Virus record (IMG/VR): IMGVR_UViG_3300036398_001095 | Location: 1 to 63,090 of that record | Reading direction: 5' to 3' (one strand) | Source of the DNA: a virus | Taxonomy: Duplodnaviria > Caudoviricetes | Length of the DNA: 63,090 nucleotides | Shown: positions 34,174-50,118 of the stretch, piece after piece | Position numbering within the stretch: the first letter of the stretch is position 1 | How the letters are laid out: each line of letters begins with the position of its first letter | Position numbers and translations under genes: made by a program | The notes under the pieces: generated by a model | Databases searched by the model: none | The model's input: only the letters and a program-made list of their open reading frames with translations | Told to the model about the DNA's origin: nothing

Positions 34174-37100
34174 CTAGTAATAAGCGACCTTGCGGCGATA
34201 CATCGGCTCACGGTCTTCATCGTCTGATTGCAGGCTCAAGAAACCGCCCGTCCTAAAGCGCAATAACGCTTGGGTCATCGAGTCTACTAGGTCATCATGC
34301 TCTCCTGAAGGAAAAGCTGCGACTTCCTCAATCAACTCATCCGCAAACTTACGCTCTGGCACCCAGATCCGCCCCGAGGCAAACAAATCCGATACGGCAT
34401 TTAGCCTCACGATCTTGTCGTTGCCTTTGGTTGGGCTGTACTCACTGACCGGAATACCCATCCTTCGGAGTTCAAAGACCAACGGGCTTCCTGCTGCCTT
34501 GGCTTCAACCAGAAATACATCCGGCTCCCACTCGCGGTAGGTTTCATAAGCCTTCTGCTTAAGTTCAGGGAATTCATATCGGTCCTTAAACGCATCCAGC
34601 AAGATGATATTCGTTTCTCCCTCCTCTGTCGTCCACACACCCCATGTAGTACAAGCAGAAAAGTCAGCCCTATTGTGCTTGAGAAACGCCGTGTCCCAAC
34701 TCTGAATCACAAAATCACATGGCGGCGGCCTATCACCCTCCCAAACCTTCCACCACTCTCGCTTAACAATCGCACCTTCCTCAGCCGTCGGCTGTTGCTG
34801 GTACTGAGCATTCCATTTACCTACCGGCAACTCCTCTTTAAGCGCCAGTAACTCCTCTAATTTCCAAAACTCAGGCCAAACCGGTTTACCAGACGGCATA
34901 ATCGCAGGTAATTCAATAACTTCCCACTCATCACCGCCTCTTGTTTGACTTGCTTTAATAACTTGACCCGTTAAATCCCTTAATGACCACCTGGTGTTGT
35001 GACTAACTACACCGTTTGCTATGAAATTTTCTGTGCGATCAATTTCAACGTCAAAAACTTCTTCCTGTCCATCGGAATCAATCGATATTATTGGGTCCAC
35101 TGTGAAATCTGAGATACGATGCAGCTCGTTCAAGTATGCCCGGAGTTTTTCCGTATCCAACTGTGAGGTTGCAGTCGTTACATAAGAGCCCTCGAACCTT
35201 TCCGGTATCGTGGCAGTGGTCAATGCACAATTTCCCATTCCAATGGGCGCGTGTATTTTTTGTTGATGGGGGCTCACCGCATACATCGCATTTGTTATTA
35301 CGCTCTGCAACCATTGCATCGTATTGATCGACAGTAATCCCGTATCTAGATTTAATCCGCGCCGCCCTGCTGGACTCTGCGTCTCTACGCCCCCTGCCTG
35401 AAGCCCAGTATTTTTTGGCGTAGTGGTCGTGGCATACCCCATCGCAGTGAACAGGCTTCTCGCAACCTTCTTCAGAACACGTTTTACCTTTCCATTTTCC
35501 GTGATACCCAAGCTCTCTTCGTGGTGCATCAGGGTTTTTTCGGTGGTAGCTTTCTTTTGATTGGCATGGTCCGCACATGCCAGGTTTTGTTTTTGACCTT
35601 GACGGCCTGCCGCACCCTTCAACGATACAAGTAAATCCCCGACCCTCAGTTGTTCCAATCTGGTCCATTCCAAGACTCCTTCATTCATAACAAGAAACGG
35701 ATGCCTCTTGTTTGCACGGAGTATTTTACCAGATCGTGTTTGTATTTTGTATATGGCATCAACACCACTTGATTGCCAATTATTGACTTTGCTTGTGGTT
35801 AGCAATCCTTTGTCAAAGGTAGCTACAAGATCATTTTTTCTTATTGCGCCTAGAGGCTTTTCCGTTCCGTCTGCCATCAAAACTGGGGTATCCCCAGTCA
35901 TGCACATTACAATAATAATCGCACCGCCAGGTTGTAATCGCTGCCGCGGACCTGACGTATACCATTCATATACTGAATCAAATATATCTGGTTTATGAGC
36001 CGCTAATTTAGCTTCTTGTTCTGAATGCGGATCATCAATAATTAATAAATCAGCACCTTTACCCGTTACAGAACCACCAACACCGATGGAAAAATACTCA
36101 CCACCCTTATTAGTAGCCCATCGCCCAGCCGATTTATTATCTGCTTTTAGTTTTACATCAGTAAATACTTGATTATATTCTTCTGAATCAATTAAGTTTC
36201 TAACTTTACGTCCAAAACCCACCGCCAATTCAGCAGTATGTGAGGTCTGTATTATCTTTTTATTTGGATTCTTACCCAAAAACCATGCAGGTAATAAATA
36301 ACTGGCAAATTCAGACTTGGTGTTGTGAGTGCATATGTAACCAGAGCCTGACAAAAACAGACCATCCTCTCGCGCCACTTTAATACACTGAGTATTCCCT
36401 GTTTGTTCTAGGCGTTTTATGCTTATATATCGGCCAAATGTTTCTTTTACTTGCTTAGTACGATCTTCTTTGCGCGGTAGTATCGCAATATCTTTTGCGT
36501 AAAACGATATTCTGTATGTTGGGCCGTAGCTTTTTTGACCTATCTTTGCTTCAGTAACCGATAGGCTGTTTTTAATACCCAGGCTAGCAAGCAATTCCCG
36601 AACATCGTCAATAATAAATCTGTTGCTTTGTGCAAATGAGCACTGACCGGCTTTGCTAACGCACCCATCAGTGTCCATCAAGCCTTTTAATAAATCTCGA
36701 CGTTGGTCCGGCGATCCTTCAAGATAGTTGCTCGGTATGTGTTTATCGCCTAATACACCAAGCTCACGCAATTTAACCTTCAGGCCTATAATGCCGAACG
36801 TCATTTTTGTCGATTGATCAGTGGTTTTGTACCCACGTCTTTCAATCTCTGCCCTTACAATTTTTGCATCTTCATTTTCCATGGTGATAACAGCTTGAGA
36901 TGAATGCCCGTCTCCAAGCCAAACACCAAAGACATACGGATCTATCAAAAATTCCTTTCGTTCGTATTCAACCGGGCTTACATCAGGAAGTCTTGGCAAA
37001 CGAGGATTTTTTTGTGTTTTCCCAGCTACAAACTCAACATCGCCGGAACGTTTTGTCCGTAATACCTCGCCGTTTTGACGCCTCCATAACTGCTCCGTAG

Positions 37101-37632
37101 TGTAGTCACGATAAACATTGACGCGCCTATTAAGCCTAACAGTCCATAGATGCTCACCGTCAACCGTAAGCGTTGCGCCGTCGTCAGTCTTTACTTCGTA
37201 CAAATCTCGGCCTTCAAATACTTCTGACTTGCCAAGCACCTGTGTCGGTTTCCCGTCTGGGCCAAAGACGAAATCTCCAATTCGGAGATCCAACATGCTT
37301 TTCCAGCCCTTAGTCGTAGGTATCATCATGCTAGTCATTATAGCATGACGTGGTGCCATATTAATAATAAGACGTTTATTATGTCCATTAACAACATTTT
37401 CAAACGCCTTAGCTACTACTTCATGATGTTTACCAGGAATAAACCCCGGCCACATGCGTTTTACAAACCCCATGAAATCATTTTGAGCGTGGGACTTAGC
37501 ATCTTCCCTCTCTTCCTCCTCTATCTCCTGAAGCAGTATCCGCTTCTCATCCTCAGTAAGTAGATGAAGCTTCCCGGCAGCTGCTTTGGCTAACTGCCTA
37601 ATGTCCAATTTTCTTCCTAACCACCCGAACAC
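34174..37632 (-). CDS. terL: Terminase large subunit containing two inteins (about 500 aa after splicing)
   Basis: INMAPRH/TKS Walker A, LIIDDP Walker B, M/TRW motif III, QSWDTA and HDDLVDS nuclease motifs; true start may be TTG at 37608. Confidence 0.92.
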   Translation of the reverse strand: MFGWLGRKLDIRQLAKAAAGKLHLLTEDEKRILLQEIEEEEREDAKSHAQNDFMGFVKRMWPGFIPGKHHEVVAKAFENVVNGHNKRLIINMAPRHAIMTSMMIPTTKGWKSMLDLRIGDFVFGPDGKPTQVLGKSEVFEGRDLYEVKTDDGATLTVDGEHLWTVRLNRRVNVYRDYTTEQLWRRQNGEVLRTKRSGDVEFVAGKTQKNPRLPRLPDVSPVEYERKEFLIDPYVFGVWLGDGHSSQAVITMENEDAKIVRAEIERRGYKTTDQSTKMTFGIIGLKVKLRELGVLGDKHIPSNYLEGSPDQRRDLLKGLMDTDGCVSKAGQCSFAQSNRFIIDDVRELLASLGIKNSLSVTEAKIGQKSYGPTYRISFYAKDIAILPRKEDRTKQVKETFGRYISIKRLEQTGNTQCIKVAREDGLFLSGSGYICTHNTKSEFASYLLPAWFLGKNPNKKIIQTSHTAELAVGFGRKVRNLIDSEEYNQVFTDVKLKADNKSAGRWATNKGGEYFSIGVGGSVTGKGADLLIIDDPHSEQEAKLAAHKPDIFDSVYEWYTSGPRQRLQPGGAIIIVMCMTGDTPVLMADGTEKPLGAIRKNDLVATFDKGLLTTSKVNNWQSSGVDAIYKIQTRSGKILRANKRHPFLVMNEGVLEWTRLEQLRVGDLLVSLKGAAGRQGQKQNLACADHANQKKATTEKTLMHHEESLGITENGKVKRVLKKVARSLFTAMGYATTTTPKNTGLQAGGVETQSPAGRRGLNLDTGLLSINTMQWLQSVITNAMYAVSPHQQKIHAPIGMGNCALTTATIPERFEGSYVTTATSQLDTEKLRAYLNELHRISDFTVDPIISIDSDGQEEVFDVEIDRTENFIANGVVSHNTRWSLRDLTGQVIKASQTRGGDEWEVIELPAIMPSGKPVWPEFWKLEELLALKEELPVGKWNAQYQQQPTAEEGAIVKREWWKVWEGDRPPPCDFVIQSWDTAFLKHNRADFSACTTWGVWTTEEGETNIILLDAFKDRYEFPELKQKAYETYREWEPDVFLVEAKAAGSPLVFELRRMGIPVSEYSPTKGNDKIVRLNAVSDLFASGRIWVPERKFADELIEEVAAFPSGEHDDLVDSMTQALLRFRTGGFLSLQSDDEDREPMYRRKVAYY
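34996..35904 (-). mobile_element. Class 1 intein (303 aa) in TerL motif III
   Basis: CMTGDTPVLMADG, ANKRHPF, VFDVEID..ENFIANGVVSHN/T. Confidence 0.9.
35078..35668 (-). CDS. Endonuclease VII-type HNH endonuclease nested out of frame in intein 2
   Basis: CDVC...IDHCHDTGKVRGLLCNDCN; N-terminal Cys/His repeats; AAGGAG 7 nt before the ATG. Confidence 0.85.
   Translation of the reverse strand: MDQIGTTEGRGFTCIVEGCGRPSRSKTKPGMCGPCQSKESYHRKNPDAPRRELGYHGKWKGKTCSEEGCEKPVHCDGVCHDHYAKKYWASGRGRRDAESSRAARIKSRYGITVDQYDAMVAERNNKCDVCGEPPSTKNTRAHWNGKLCIDHCHDTGKVRGLLCNDCNLTVGYGKTPGILERAASYLRFHSGPNNID
36322..37344 (-). mobile_element. Class 3 intein with a LAGLIDADG endonuclease (341 aa) in the TerL P-loop
   Basis: Starts with Ala; EHLW (block B Trp), TQCIKV (block F Cys), CTHN/T; GVWLGDG and LKGLMDTDG. 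Confidence 0.88.
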
Positions 37633-37816
37633 TCCTAGGCTTACCAGGCGTTTTCTTCAAATACCCCTGCTTACACAGACTCTTCACCAGCCTATGCACA
37701 TTACTCTTACTATCCTGTAGCAATACAAACCGTATGTCGTCATACGAAGGACCAAAGTGATACAACTCCCACCAGGTCTTTACAGCCAGCAGGACTTTTG
37801 CCTCTGCCTGTGTCAT
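37598..37816 (-). CDS. LexA-type winged-helix DNA-binding protein without peptidase domain
   Basis: GPSYDDI...SKSNVHRLVKSL..QGYL...PRSV. Confidence 0.7.
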   Translation of the reverse strand: MTQAEAKVLLAVKTWWELYHFGPSYDDIRFVLLQDSKSNVHRLVKSLCKQGYLKKTPGKPRSVRVVRKKIGH

Positions 37817-37958
37817 ATCAAACCTATCAAGATAAAACCAATACCCCACATCATCAAAACACCAGCAAAGTAATTCTGCGATGAATGCGATCTAGCCGGC
37901 GGCCCGTTCTCTGCCACCTTGTACCCAGCATACAGAAGCACAAGACCAACCACGATCT

Positions 37959-38165
37959 TCACTTCAACTCCCTAATCAACTCAGCACACACCTTCGCCCC
38001 ACGGTCCTTGGTATTCCTACCCCAGTCCTCACAGACCAAAGCACACCTCTCCCTCTCATGTATCTGTACTAACCTCATAAAGGTCAACAAATCCCCAGTA
38101 GTACCTATCCACCCACCATCCCCAACCTTCATACCAGCACTACTGGCCATCTTCACCAGATTCAT
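37959..38165 (-). CDS. Hypothetical protein
   Basis: ERERCALVCE motif shared with small genes at 48.8-49.3 kb. Confidence 0.5.
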   Translation of the reverse strand: MNLVKMASSAGMKVGDGGWIGTTGDLLTFMRLVQIHERERCALVCEDWGRNTKDRGAKVCAELIRELK

Positions 38166-39063
38166 TCAACCTCCTCTGCACCTCTTCCCTAGCTTCCTCC
38201 CTAGGCTGCCACTCTATCTTCGGCACCTCCCCCATCGTCTCCGCATACCATCTCTTAGGATCCTCCCATATCGGCCTCTCCTTTTTTTTCCTACCCCCCT
38301 TATGGGAACCCACTTCTTCTTCTATGGGGGCCTCTTCCGTAGTAATCCCGCCAGCTGGCGGGATTTGATACTTTAGTAGGGGGTGGGGGTCTTCTTCGTC
38401 CGAGGGTAAATTTTTTGCAGATGGTTTGTGTGGATTATTGGACCTAGCGCCGCCCCCAGCCCCCTGGCCACTTTGCCCCTCCCCCCCTACCGTGGGGTCG
38501 CCCTCGTGCGCCTGCGCGTGCGCGGGTGGGTGCTCGCGCGTGTGCTCGTGCGCGTCCACGTCAATCACACCGCCGAGTCGGGCTAGCTTTTCCCGCAAGC
38601 GTGCCGTTGTATCGCCTGCGCGCTCATGGGTTATGACTGTGCGAGTCTGGAAGGCATCAACGTCCGCCAGCTTGCCGAGTAGCTCGAGCGCACGCAGCCG
38701 ATCGCCTGGCTTTTGAGCCGTCCGGGCCTCGTGCTGGAGAGAGTCCACGACAAAGTTTCGGATGTCTAGGGGGTTTTGCGAATACCTCAATCTGTTTACG
38801 CTCGTTTGCTGATCAATCCCTGCACGCACTTTTGGATTGGCTGCAATCCTGCTAGCCGTGCTGCTAATCGTGCTGCTACTGCCGCTCACGTCATACGCTT
38901 GCAGGTAAGCCTCTCGGTTAGTAGCTCCCGCTGCTACCGCTTGCACGAATTGTTTTTGCTTGGCTGTTAGGTCGACGTGAGGCATAAGCACTCTATCTGC
39001 TGGCACTCCGCGCCCTATAGCTCTCACTGCTGCCGGTGGTAGTTCGCTTGCTTCGCTTGCCAT
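38140..39063 (-). CDS. terS: Terminase small subunit
   Basis: LTAKQKQFV...AYLQAY HTH, RLRALELLGK; upstream of TerL. Confidence 0.7.
   Translation of the reverse strand: MASEASELPPAAVRAIGRGVPADRVLMPHVDLTAKQKQFVQAVAAGATNREAYLQAYDVSGSSSTISSTASRIAANPKVRAGIDQQTSVNRLRYSQNPLDIRNFVVDSLQHEARTAQKPGDRLRALELLGKLADVDAFQTRTVITHERAGDTTARLREKLARLGGVIDVDAHEHTREHPPAHAQAHEGDPTVGGEGQSGQGAGGGARSNNPHKPSAKNLPSDEEDPHPLLKYQIPPAGGITTEEAPIEEEVGSHKGGRKKKERPIWEDPKRWYAETMGEVPKIEWQPREEAREEVQRRLNESGEDGQ
38342..38381. repeat. 40-bp dispersed palindromic element, copy 3 (in terS)
   Basis: GTAATCCCGCCAGCTGGCGGGATTTGATACTTTAGTAGGG; encodes LLKYQIPPAGGIT. Confidence 0.9.
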
Positions 39064-49470: not shown

Positions 49471-50118
49471 TCAGAAGATGCGTAGCTTCACGTCCTTTAG
49501 ATGCACTTCTTGGGTCGGCTCGGCATCACGCCAGTCGGTCATGTCCCAATTACCCTTGCCATGGTTGCATGGACTGCAAAGTACTTGTAAATTTTGTAAC
49601 GATAATGCCAGATGAGGAAAGAGTTTGCGTGGCTTGATATGGTCAACATTGATACGCACACCATCGGCCGCGGTGGCACCACAGCACTGGCACCTAGCGC
49701 CGTATTTCTTCAGCGCTTCCATACGAACCCTGCGCCATTCATAAGTCTCAAGGAAAGCATCAGAAGCCGGGTTGACTTTGTTGGCCTGCCATTTGGCGGC
49801 TAGGTCATTGTTGGATAGCTTGGCATCCTGCTTAGCCTGTCGCGCTTTTACTTCCTTGTGGTTAGGTATAGCAACCTTGACCGACGGCATCTGAAAGCCA
49901 GCGCCATACAAAGCGTTCTTGGCGGTATCGTACTTCGCCCCCTTGTGCCTCATGAATGAAAGCAGCTGATCCGCCATGTGCTCAGTAACAAGCATATGCC
50001 CGTACTTGGCTAGCCATCCCTTCTTGGGCGGATACGGTATGCCAAATACCCTAGCCTCTACGCCAGATAGCGTTGAAGCGCATCCGTATTTTTTCAGCAA
50101 GTACGTTTTGATATTCAT
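49471..50118 (-). CDS. HNH endonuclease
   Basis: CQCCG...VDHIKP...NLQVLCSPCNHGK. Confidence 0.85.
   Translation of the reverse strand: MNIKTYLLKKYGCASTLSGVEARVFGIPYPPKKGWLAKYGHMLVTEHMADQLLSFMRHKGAKYDTAKNALYGAGFQMPSVKVAIPNHKEVKARQAKQDAKLSNNDLAAKWQANKVNPASDAFLETYEWRRVRMEALKKYGARCQCCGATAADGVRINVDHIKPRKLFPHLALSLQNLQVLCSPCNHGKGNWDMTDWRDAEPTQEVHLKDVKLRIF

Follow-up and report, generated by a model that had tools for sequence, protein, structure and literature searches.

Inteins whose endonuclease is encoded out of frame with the splicing domain have already been reported from actinobacteriophages, where the endonuclease is of the endonuclease VII type (Gosselin, Arsenault and Gogarten, bioRxiv 10.1101/2025.01.02.630785). 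That preprint names the Gordonia phage Angelicage together with Affeca, Keitabear and Sedona, proposes that a free-standing endonuclease invaded an intein, and predicts that such inteins are commoner than found so far. Here we analyse a related locus in the IMG/VR record IMGVR_UViG_3300036398_001095, a viral sequence of 63,090 bp (the window, by which we mean this whole stretch of DNA), in which the gene for the terminase large subunit, TerL, contains two inteins. The second of these, intein 2, encloses on the same strand, but in another frame, an open reading frame (ORF) for an endonuclease VII-type nuclease, and both frames are open throughout their overlap. It is very probable, in our judgement, that intein 2 is a mobile two-gene element of the same clade as the actinobacteriophage TerL inteins with out-of-frame endonuclease VII genes.

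The actinophage inteins and intein 2 share a same-strand endonuclease VII-like ORF that is in ‘frame 3’ relative to the intein and lies at the place of the homing-endonuclease domain, a disordered in-frame centre, and a match to T4 endonuclease VII. They also share the host gene, TerL, and the insertion site, ...M/CMTGDTPVL ... SHN/TRW (slashes mark the intein boundaries); compared with Angelicage, identity is 49.5% for the nested protein and 61–71% for the splicing blocks. Unlike the actinophage members, the window has a pelagiphage/cyanophage-like extein (55% identity, against only ~25% to the actinophage exteins) and near-identical DNA in lake and freshwater metagenomes, its G+C content is ~50% rather than ~65%, and the nested gene has a strong, conserved Shine-Dalgarno (SD) sequence and ATG. 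Beyond those members it has hundreds of environmental relatives (135 and 274 matches in two scans). The architecture itself was therefore already known, and an earlier note on this DNA, made from the sequence alone, erred in treating the layout as unprecedented, because the same intein family had been described in actinobacteriophages (bioRxiv 10.1101/2025.01.02.630785). What the window represents is a non-actinophage, freshwater, environmentally abundant lineage of this clade. New here are the explicit, conserved SD–ATG pair made from codons of the splicing (Hint) domain, a quantified avoidance of stop codons, and the coexistence of occupied and empty alleles in one sample. Our full-text literature searches returned no endonuclease VII-type case of the layout outside actinophages, a statement that holds for those searches only, and a text search of Kelley et al. 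(2016; PMC5050341) found no mention of the out-of-frame ORF.

Similar arrangements are known with other nucleases. In a cyanobacterial dnaX intein the homing endonuclease, of the LAGLIDADG family, is out of frame (Phillips et al., bioRxiv 10.64898/2026.09.14.751524, citing Gorbalenya 1998). According to that preprint, the dnaX intein is like intein 2 in its overlapping ORF, in the purifying selection on the endonuclease frame with relaxed selection on the intein frame, and in its sporadic distribution, but it differs in having a LAGLIDADG nuclease and a cellular host gene, dnaX, and in belonging to a different intein lineage. ShiLan (Arsenault et al., Genes 2025, PMC11855218), an HNH insertion ‘hidden’ out of frame in the DNA methylases of phages, is described as an actively mobile element whose HNH-type nuclease is likewise out of frame within a host ORF that is kept open. 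ShiLan has no splicing domain and its insert stays in the host protein, whereas the Hint domain of intein 2 would remove the insert; no ribosome-binding site was found for ShiLan, whose authors propose leaderless initiation, whereas an SD is present here.

Free-standing phage endonuclease VII genes (the T4 gp49 family, and genes of Mycobacterium, Klebsiella and Gordonia phages, among others) have the same PF02945 domain, with 30–43% identity over nested residues ~90–190. They are stand-alone and intergenic, and most of those listed match only residues ~90–190 and do not match the N-terminal Cys-rich modules of the nested protein. A further parallel is offered by fractured genes, in which a free-standing endonuclease gene separates the two halves of a split intein and which Dassa and colleagues are said to have described in 2009; there too an endonuclease gene with its own start and stop occupies the position of the intein's endonuclease domain. 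Unlike fractured genes, in which the host gene forms two trans-spliced ORFs, the TerL frame is continuous here and in 84 of the 84 sequences compared.

Intein 2 and its nested gene

The TerL gene, intein 2 and the nested gene comprise the following features (lengths in amino acids, aa, or nucleotides, nt):

34174..37632, minus strand: TerL precursor gene, 1152 aa, a single uninterrupted frame across two inteins (ORF listing and Pfam)
34996..35904, minus strand: intein 2, 303 aa, Cys1 ... His-Asn with Thr at +1, inserted between ...IIIVM and TRW... of TerL as a precise 909-nt unit
35614..35904, minus strand: N-terminal splicing (Hint) part, residues 1–97 (AlphaFold2 model, Foldseek)
35155..35613, minus strand: intein-frame linker, residues 98–250, without a domain, predicted disordered, only stop-free
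34996..35154, minus strand: C-terminal splicing part, residues 251–303, blocks F/G, ...TENFIANGVVSHN (motif, conservation, AlphaFold2 model)
35078..35668, minus strand: nested ORF, 196 aa, +2 frame, for a beta-beta-alpha-Me nuclease of the endonuclease VII type whose N-terminal part has two Cys-rich modules
35108..35362, minus strand: Endonuclease_7 catalytic domain, nested residues 103–187 (Pfam, conservation, profile alignment to T4 endonuclease VII)
35666..35668, minus strand: nested start ATG, made of the last base of a Glu codon and the TG of an invariant intein Trp codon
35676..35681, minus strand: SD sequence AAGGAG, 7 nt (TCTTGGA) upstream of the nested ATG, its GGAG being a conserved intein Gly codon plus the next base
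35681..35683, minus strand: nuclease-frame TGA located 15 nt before the ATG, closing that frame towards the intein N-terminus

Translated, intein 2 runs from CMTGDTPV to VVSHN, and the next residue is Thr. On the 1152-aa TerL ORF, Pfam matches Terminase_6C, Intein_splicing and LAGLIDADG_3; the Intein_splicing match (TerL residues 600–879) scores about 70 bits (69.8–70.4) against a cut-off of 35.8, and is aligned to both ends of intein 2 with the middle skipped. C1, H302 and N303 are invariant across 39 sequences, as is the block B histidine, H68 (in RANKRHPF). In an AlphaFold2 model built with the 39-sequence alignment, residues 1–97 and ~260–303 have high values of pLDDT (predicted score in the local distance difference test), about 90 (block means 89–96 for residues 1–90 and 74 for 91–100), and residues 98–250, 153 in all, are below 50 and so predicted to be disordered. 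Foldseek matched the ordered part to 57 PDB chains at E ≤ 0.001, with mini-inteins among the matches; the best was 6frg (E 4.6e-10), and the leading matches were the Ssp DnaB, Npu DnaB and Mxe GyrA inteins. Cys1, the terminal His-Asn, the +1 Thr, the block B His, the profile match and the predicted fold all point to a class 1, Hint-fold intein. We infer that intein 2 splices out of TerL, because its blocks are intact and TerL is essential.

The nested ORF matches Endonuclease_7 (PF02945) with an E-value of 6.9e-20 and 71.2 bits (cut-off 23.6), and in a genome-wide profile search (73.6 bits) it was the sole gene of that family above cut-off. C127, C130, D150, H151, H153, C163, N164, C166 and N167 of its product are invariant in 39 sequences and align with CLIC...DHDH...CNLCN of T4 endonuclease VII, in which we take the corresponding residues to be zinc ligands and catalytic residues. 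A profile of the nested family aligns to residues 10–70 of T4 endonuclease VII (E 1.5e-4). The family profile was needed to reach that enzyme; a single-sequence phmmer search of the nested protein against the PDB gave only Hpy99I (E 0.0025). In a structural model of the nested protein (mean pLDDT 84.2), the top three Foldseek matches in the PDB, at a probability of 1.00 but weak by E-value, are T4 endonuclease VII (1e7l, 2qnf and 1en7); Hpy99I comes next. Two Cys-rich modules (C14, C19, C32, C35; and C64, C69, C79 plus a His) precede the nuclease domain and presumably bind DNA.

In one relative (L051:3636-4658) the intein is longer, at 341 aa, because its nuclease includes a further Cys-rich module of 38 residues (the third C...GC...C..C repeat); there the TerL frame is open through the added 114 nt too.

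With its start at nucleotide offset 1964 of TerL (1964 mod 3 = 2), the nested ORF is in the +2 frame. The overlap of 591 nt contains no stop in the TerL frame and 15 in the third frame, and the nuclease frame is itself rich in stops elsewhere in the TerL gene, outside the nested ORF. We resampled synonymous codons in 20,000 trials while holding one protein fixed at a time. With the nuclease fixed, the TerL frame was stop-free in 0.5–1.1% of the resamplings (mean 2.7–3.6 stops); when it was the intein-frame peptide that was fixed, 0 of 20,000 left the nuclease frame open (mean 10.5 stops). This asymmetry marks the nuclease frame as the primary one for coding over this DNA, the intein frame having only to stay open. 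The longest off-frame open run is 200 codons in TerL, compared with 123 codons among 11 other long genes of the window. The earlier note had described intact splicing blocks around a centre without a recognisable domain and, in another frame of the same strand, a 196-aa endonuclease VII-type ORF preceded by AAGGAG-7nt-ATG, with both frames open over 591 nt. Its description is borne out by the invariant residues and above-cut-off profile of the splicing part, by the centre having no Pfam domain as well as its low pLDDT, by the agreement of ORF listing, Pfam and sequence on the nested gene, and by the stop counts.

Conservation, selection and start signals

When 50,697 phage records were searched by tblastn with the nested protein, the best matches lay inside TerL genes of Gordonia and Mycobacterium phages, with 49.5–56.7% identity (E 7e-48 to 3e-47) within TerL of Angelicage, Affeca, Keitabear and Sedona. 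The ORF for the endonuclease VII-type protein lies at +2 from the annotated TerL frame in Angelicage, Phlyer and Vincenzo. An IMG/VR scan with the nested protein gave 135 relatives, from which 80 loci (58–99% identity) were kept; these, the three actinophages just named and the window form a set of 84 sequences. In all 84 the nuclease ORF lies inside a long TerL ORF in the same relative frame, with the TerL frame open over the match and the third frame closed, and in 10 of them it stops 6–18 nt short of the end of the tblastn match, indicating a shorter C-terminus with no internal stop. The insertion site, ...M/CMTGDT...SHN/TRW, is identical in all 77 copies whose boundaries were found by motif search; the other seven were missed by the N-terminal pattern or are truncated, and were excluded from later counts.

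Scanning IMG/VR with the 78-aa N-splicing part alone gave 274 relatives, of which 80 loci were kept, and the nuclease is at offset +2 in every one of these 80 (two end before the intein C-terminus). Among the 160 loci examined in the two scans there was no mini-intein or in-frame relative of the intein 2 splicing domain. The nested gene may plausibly have arisen by a free-standing endonuclease gene invading a mini-intein, because, outside inteins, it is closest to endonuclease VII genes that stand free in phages; the mini-intein precursor was not found, as the 80 loci matched by the splicing domain alone already have the out-of-frame ORF.

Two candidates for an in-frame form were considered and set aside. 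A search of longer proteins (344–2000 aa, 395 candidates) gave a single match, P0002, its otherwise empty result being weak evidence. P0002 is a 476-aa protein with N-extein, N-intein and nuclease in one frame on a lone 2097-nt contig; it ends at the nuclease stop, lacks the first ~34 nuclease residues, and reads as a frameshifted or deleted copy and not as a canonical in-frame intein. The other, L167:2508-4707, is on a 911-kb contig of an alphaproteobacterial metagenome-assembled genome (MAG); TerL is broken there into at least three frames, with N-intein and nuclease in one, and the locus is probably a decayed prophage copy, or else an assembly problem. A scan of prokaryote genomes found five MAG loci, of which four have the usual nested layout and the fifth is L167. 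The contigs of these four were binned as Microbacteriaceae, Saccharimonadales, Caulobacteraceae and Chloroflexota, bins that may merely hold phage contigs.

For measuring selection in the two frames the family offers a large and diverse set: 77 inteins, corresponding to 65 distinct DNAs, yielded 42 sequences below 90% nuclease identity. Over the nuclease ORF in these 42, nucleotide divergence is 0.326, 0.258 and 0.545 at nuclease codon positions 1, 2 and 3, the most variable site class is the second codon position of the intein frame, and mean pairwise amino-acid identity is 0.603 for the nuclease but falls to 0.355 for the intein frame and 0.334 for the third. There are no stops in the nuclease or the intein frame and 536 in the third. 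When the synonymous codons of each sequence were permuted, 66.0 intein-frame stops were expected (summed over the 42) vs. 0 seen, and the median per-sequence probability of an open intein frame was 0.085. These patterns argue for purifying selection on the amino-acid sequence of the nuclease, and suggest that the intein frame over the same DNA is selected only for stop avoidance. The ends of the overlap differ from this. Over nuclease residues 1–14, where the 5′ end of the overlap coincides with the last strands of the N-splicing domain, conservation is 0.61 in the intein frame vs. 0.38 in the nuclease, and only there is the intein frame better conserved; over the last 14 nuclease residues it is 0.54 in both frames. 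We take the splicing domain to be the constrained one of the two at both ends.

Start signals for the nested gene are conserved as well. Of the 42 sequences, 36 have ATG and four have GTG at the aligned position, the two exceptions being actinophage rows that start elsewhere. The intein Trp codon, TGG, is at the start in all 39 non-actinophage sequences, and the codon before it ends in A in 36 of them. In the same 39, the conserved intein Gly 11 nt upstream of the start is encoded by GGA (28), GGG (10) or GGC (1), against a background in the same TerL ORFs of 21% GGA, 24% GGG, 31% GGT and 24% GGC. A G follows this codon in 38 of the 39, giving GGAG or GGGG at 7-nt spacing. The bias at synonymous sites of the intein frame thus appears to serve the nested gene, and internal initiation on the TerL mRNA would be the simplest way to make the nuclease.

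Mobility of the element

The C-extein of the window is nearest to those of Pelagibacter phages HTVC027P and HTVC023P, phage DSL-LC04 and cyanophages (47–58% identity; 55% to HTVC027P TerL). Near-identical DNA occurs in 14 DNA runs from about ten studies, tagged as lake, freshwater, aquatic or estuary metagenomes, two of which may be the source of the window record itself. A scan with the C-extein found 273 TerL relatives, and among the 80 loci kept, intein 2 and its nuclease are present in 10, the site is uninterrupted in 65 and it is out of reach in five. Among the intein-2-empty alleles are some (L090, L091) with a C-extein 100% identical to that of the window, and occupied and empty alleles differ by exactly 909 nt. 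In DNA run X6 a joint that skips the intein is found alongside the occupied allele, and likewise in RNA-library run X16. Differences in depth between extein flanks and intein were not used, as conserved TerL parts of other organisms add depth.

Nuclease and extein identities are only weakly correlated among 56 environmental loci (Spearman 0.37, 1540 pairs): nucleases that are 96–99.5% identical lie within exteins 68–72% identical, and exteins 88% identical hold nucleases 57% identical. Between the window and Angelicage, Phlyer and Vincenzo, identity is 55–71% in the splicing parts of the intein and 38–51% in the nested protein, compared with 24–34% over most of the length of the extein parts, where the C-extein aligned only over its first ~35–100 residues. 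By these comparisons the history of the element appears to disagree with that of its extein. A 98%-complete intein-less relative has no Endonuclease_7 match, and the enzyme is therefore no core phage function.

Proposed mechanism, rival explanations and gene neighbourhood

We propose that ribosomes read frame 0 through to a protein in which the two Hint halves are joined by a 153-residue disordered linker, and that the intein would then excise itself to leave an active terminase. In the +2 frame, ribosomes would start at the internal AAGGAG-7nt-ATG and make the 196-aa endonuclease VII-type nuclease as a separate protein. This nuclease would cut the intein-less TerL alleles of co-infecting relatives near ...GTAATG/ACTAGG..., and repair would copy the whole 909-nt unit into the cut empty site.

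Several points weigh against this proposal. The specificity of the nuclease for the empty TerL site is purely our inference, and by Foldseek it resembles T4 endonuclease VII only weakly (E 2.6e-3 to 1.1e-2, TM-score 0.24–0.34). Given the nuclease, the chance of an open TerL frame is ~1% in the window and has a median of 0.085 per sequence across the family, so the statistic from any single sequence is by itself modest. The SD overlaps a conserved intein Gly codon and part of its conservation is therefore due to the intein protein, and the codon-choice counts come from related sequences, not from independent events. A promoter scan gave four sites vs. 3.1 expected, none just upstream of the nested start, and RNA folding in the start region is not unusual (z −0.91). 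RNA-library contigs (X15, X16) cover parts of the intein but show neither transcription, strand nor 5′ ends, and we did not count them as evidence of expression.

The nested protein could instead be a useful phage resolvase, cargo co-expressed with the terminase that debranches DNA for packaging like T4 gp49, and no homing enzyme. T4 endonuclease VII clears branched DNA before packaging, the nested protein belongs to its family, and its gene lies within a packaging gene and is the sole Endonuclease_7 gene over cut-off in the genome. We nevertheless regard this as improbable, for the nuclease is missing from 65 of 75 close TerL relatives, no other Endonuclease_7 match takes its place in the 98%-complete intein-less genome, it travels with the intein independently of the extein, and its two extra Cys-rich modules, whose role is presumed, are as in site-specific phage endonucleases. 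Production by a programmed −1 ribosomal frameshift, giving a nuclease fused to N-extein and N-intein with no internal initiation, is very improbable. The +2 frame does correspond to a −1 shift from the TerL frame, and P0002 is just such a fusion; but P0002 is one sequence on one contig, as a simple frameshift or deletion would yield, the nuclease-frame stop stands between the upstream intein and the ATG, and ATG/GTG and SD are conserved at a fixed position. No slippery heptamer was seen when the start region was read by eye, no tool having been applied. That the intein is decaying, with the remains of an earlier in-frame domain at its centre and a +2 ORF that is a relic free of selection, seems extremely improbable: a disordered centre with no domain is what decay would leave, but the nuclease frame has the codon pattern of purifying selection, 60% identity and invariant catalytic and zinc positions, is stop-free in the 42 non-redundant sequences, and shows recent transfers between divergent exteins.

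Next to no probability attaches to an assembly or sequencing artefact, in which two compensating indels would mask an ordinary in-frame endonuclease domain, the error that the earlier note had named as fatal to its reading. The sole indels in the metagenome contigs, a 1-nt deletion at 35143 and a 1-nt insertion at 35147, are a pair of this kind, but they occur in one divergent contig of depth 2.9 from RNA-library run X15, keep both frames and alter one codon only; none places the nuclease in the intein frame. A contig from X3, a public lake/freshwater metagenome, covers 34985–36000 with 0 differences and 0 gaps, contigs from X6 are identical and gap-free over 34937–35582, and all of the 84 independent sequences, among them finished genomes of isolated actinophages, have the same two frames. 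With the frames shared throughout and the independent contigs free of indels, we consider the artefact refuted; the TGA before the ATG and an open TerL frame not expected by chance also speak against it. The broader view of that note, a dual-coding mobile element whose nuclease has its own start signals, has likewise stood, given the shared frames, the presence or absence of 909 nt among near-identical TerL alleles, a history unlike that of the extein, and the conserved SD and ATG/GTG.

Within the reading as a mobile two-gene element, the case for the out-of-frame layout being an old, selectively maintained architecture, and no short-lived accident on the way towards a split or in-frame intein, seems to us evenly balanced. 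On that view, one TerL intein clade would build the ribosome-binding site and start of its nuclease from conserved Hint Gly and Trp codons, would have kept the layout down to ~40% nuclease identity while essentially never going back to the in-frame form, and would have passed among phages whose hosts are unrelated, actinobacteriophages on the one hand and, on the other, freshwater phages whose terminases are pelagiphage-like. The dose of nuclease could then be set, through separate initiation, apart from that of terminase. The papers cited above leave open how hidden nucleases are translated, and the SD and ATG found here are explicit and lie within conserved intein codons. Because same-strand nested genes escape standard gene callers, such inteins are annotated as decaying or mini-inteins; an architecture known from a few dozen actinophages proves to be common in environmental phages. 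The locus also bears on the ‘splicing first, endonuclease later’ view of intein evolution, and on the tolerance of a disordered linker of ~150 residues between Hint halves.

The viral record has a G+C content of 50.4% and is rated 100% complete by CheckV, and its TerL gene is flanked by genes for the terminase small subunit, the portal and structural proteins. The small subunit gene (38140–39063, minus strand; 307 aa) matches phrog_51 (E 5e-11). Upstream of TerL an 83-aa ORF (37598–37849, minus strand) overlaps the annotated TerL start by 35 nt and has weak matches to winged-helix/LexA-type DNA-binding proteins, all under their cut-offs. Intein 1 of TerL (36322–37344, minus strand; 341 aa, LAGLIDADG_3/Hom_end) is inserted in the P-loop between ...NMAPRH and TKSEF...; its first residue is Ala, not Cys or Ser, and it ends in CTHN followed by T, so that it may belong to what we take to be the class 3-type inteins. 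It is missing from the closest relatives (TerL 98% identical, with an 819-aa stop-to-stop ORF, e.g. L004–L011), and is thus polymorphic too. A second, weak Endonuclease_7 match in the window (49534–49749) was rejected as unrelated to the nested nuclease: it is part of an ordinary free-standing HNH endonuclease gene (49471–50118, minus strand; 215 aa; Pfam HNH, E 6.7e-10), which has homologues in the intein-less relatives G002 and G003.

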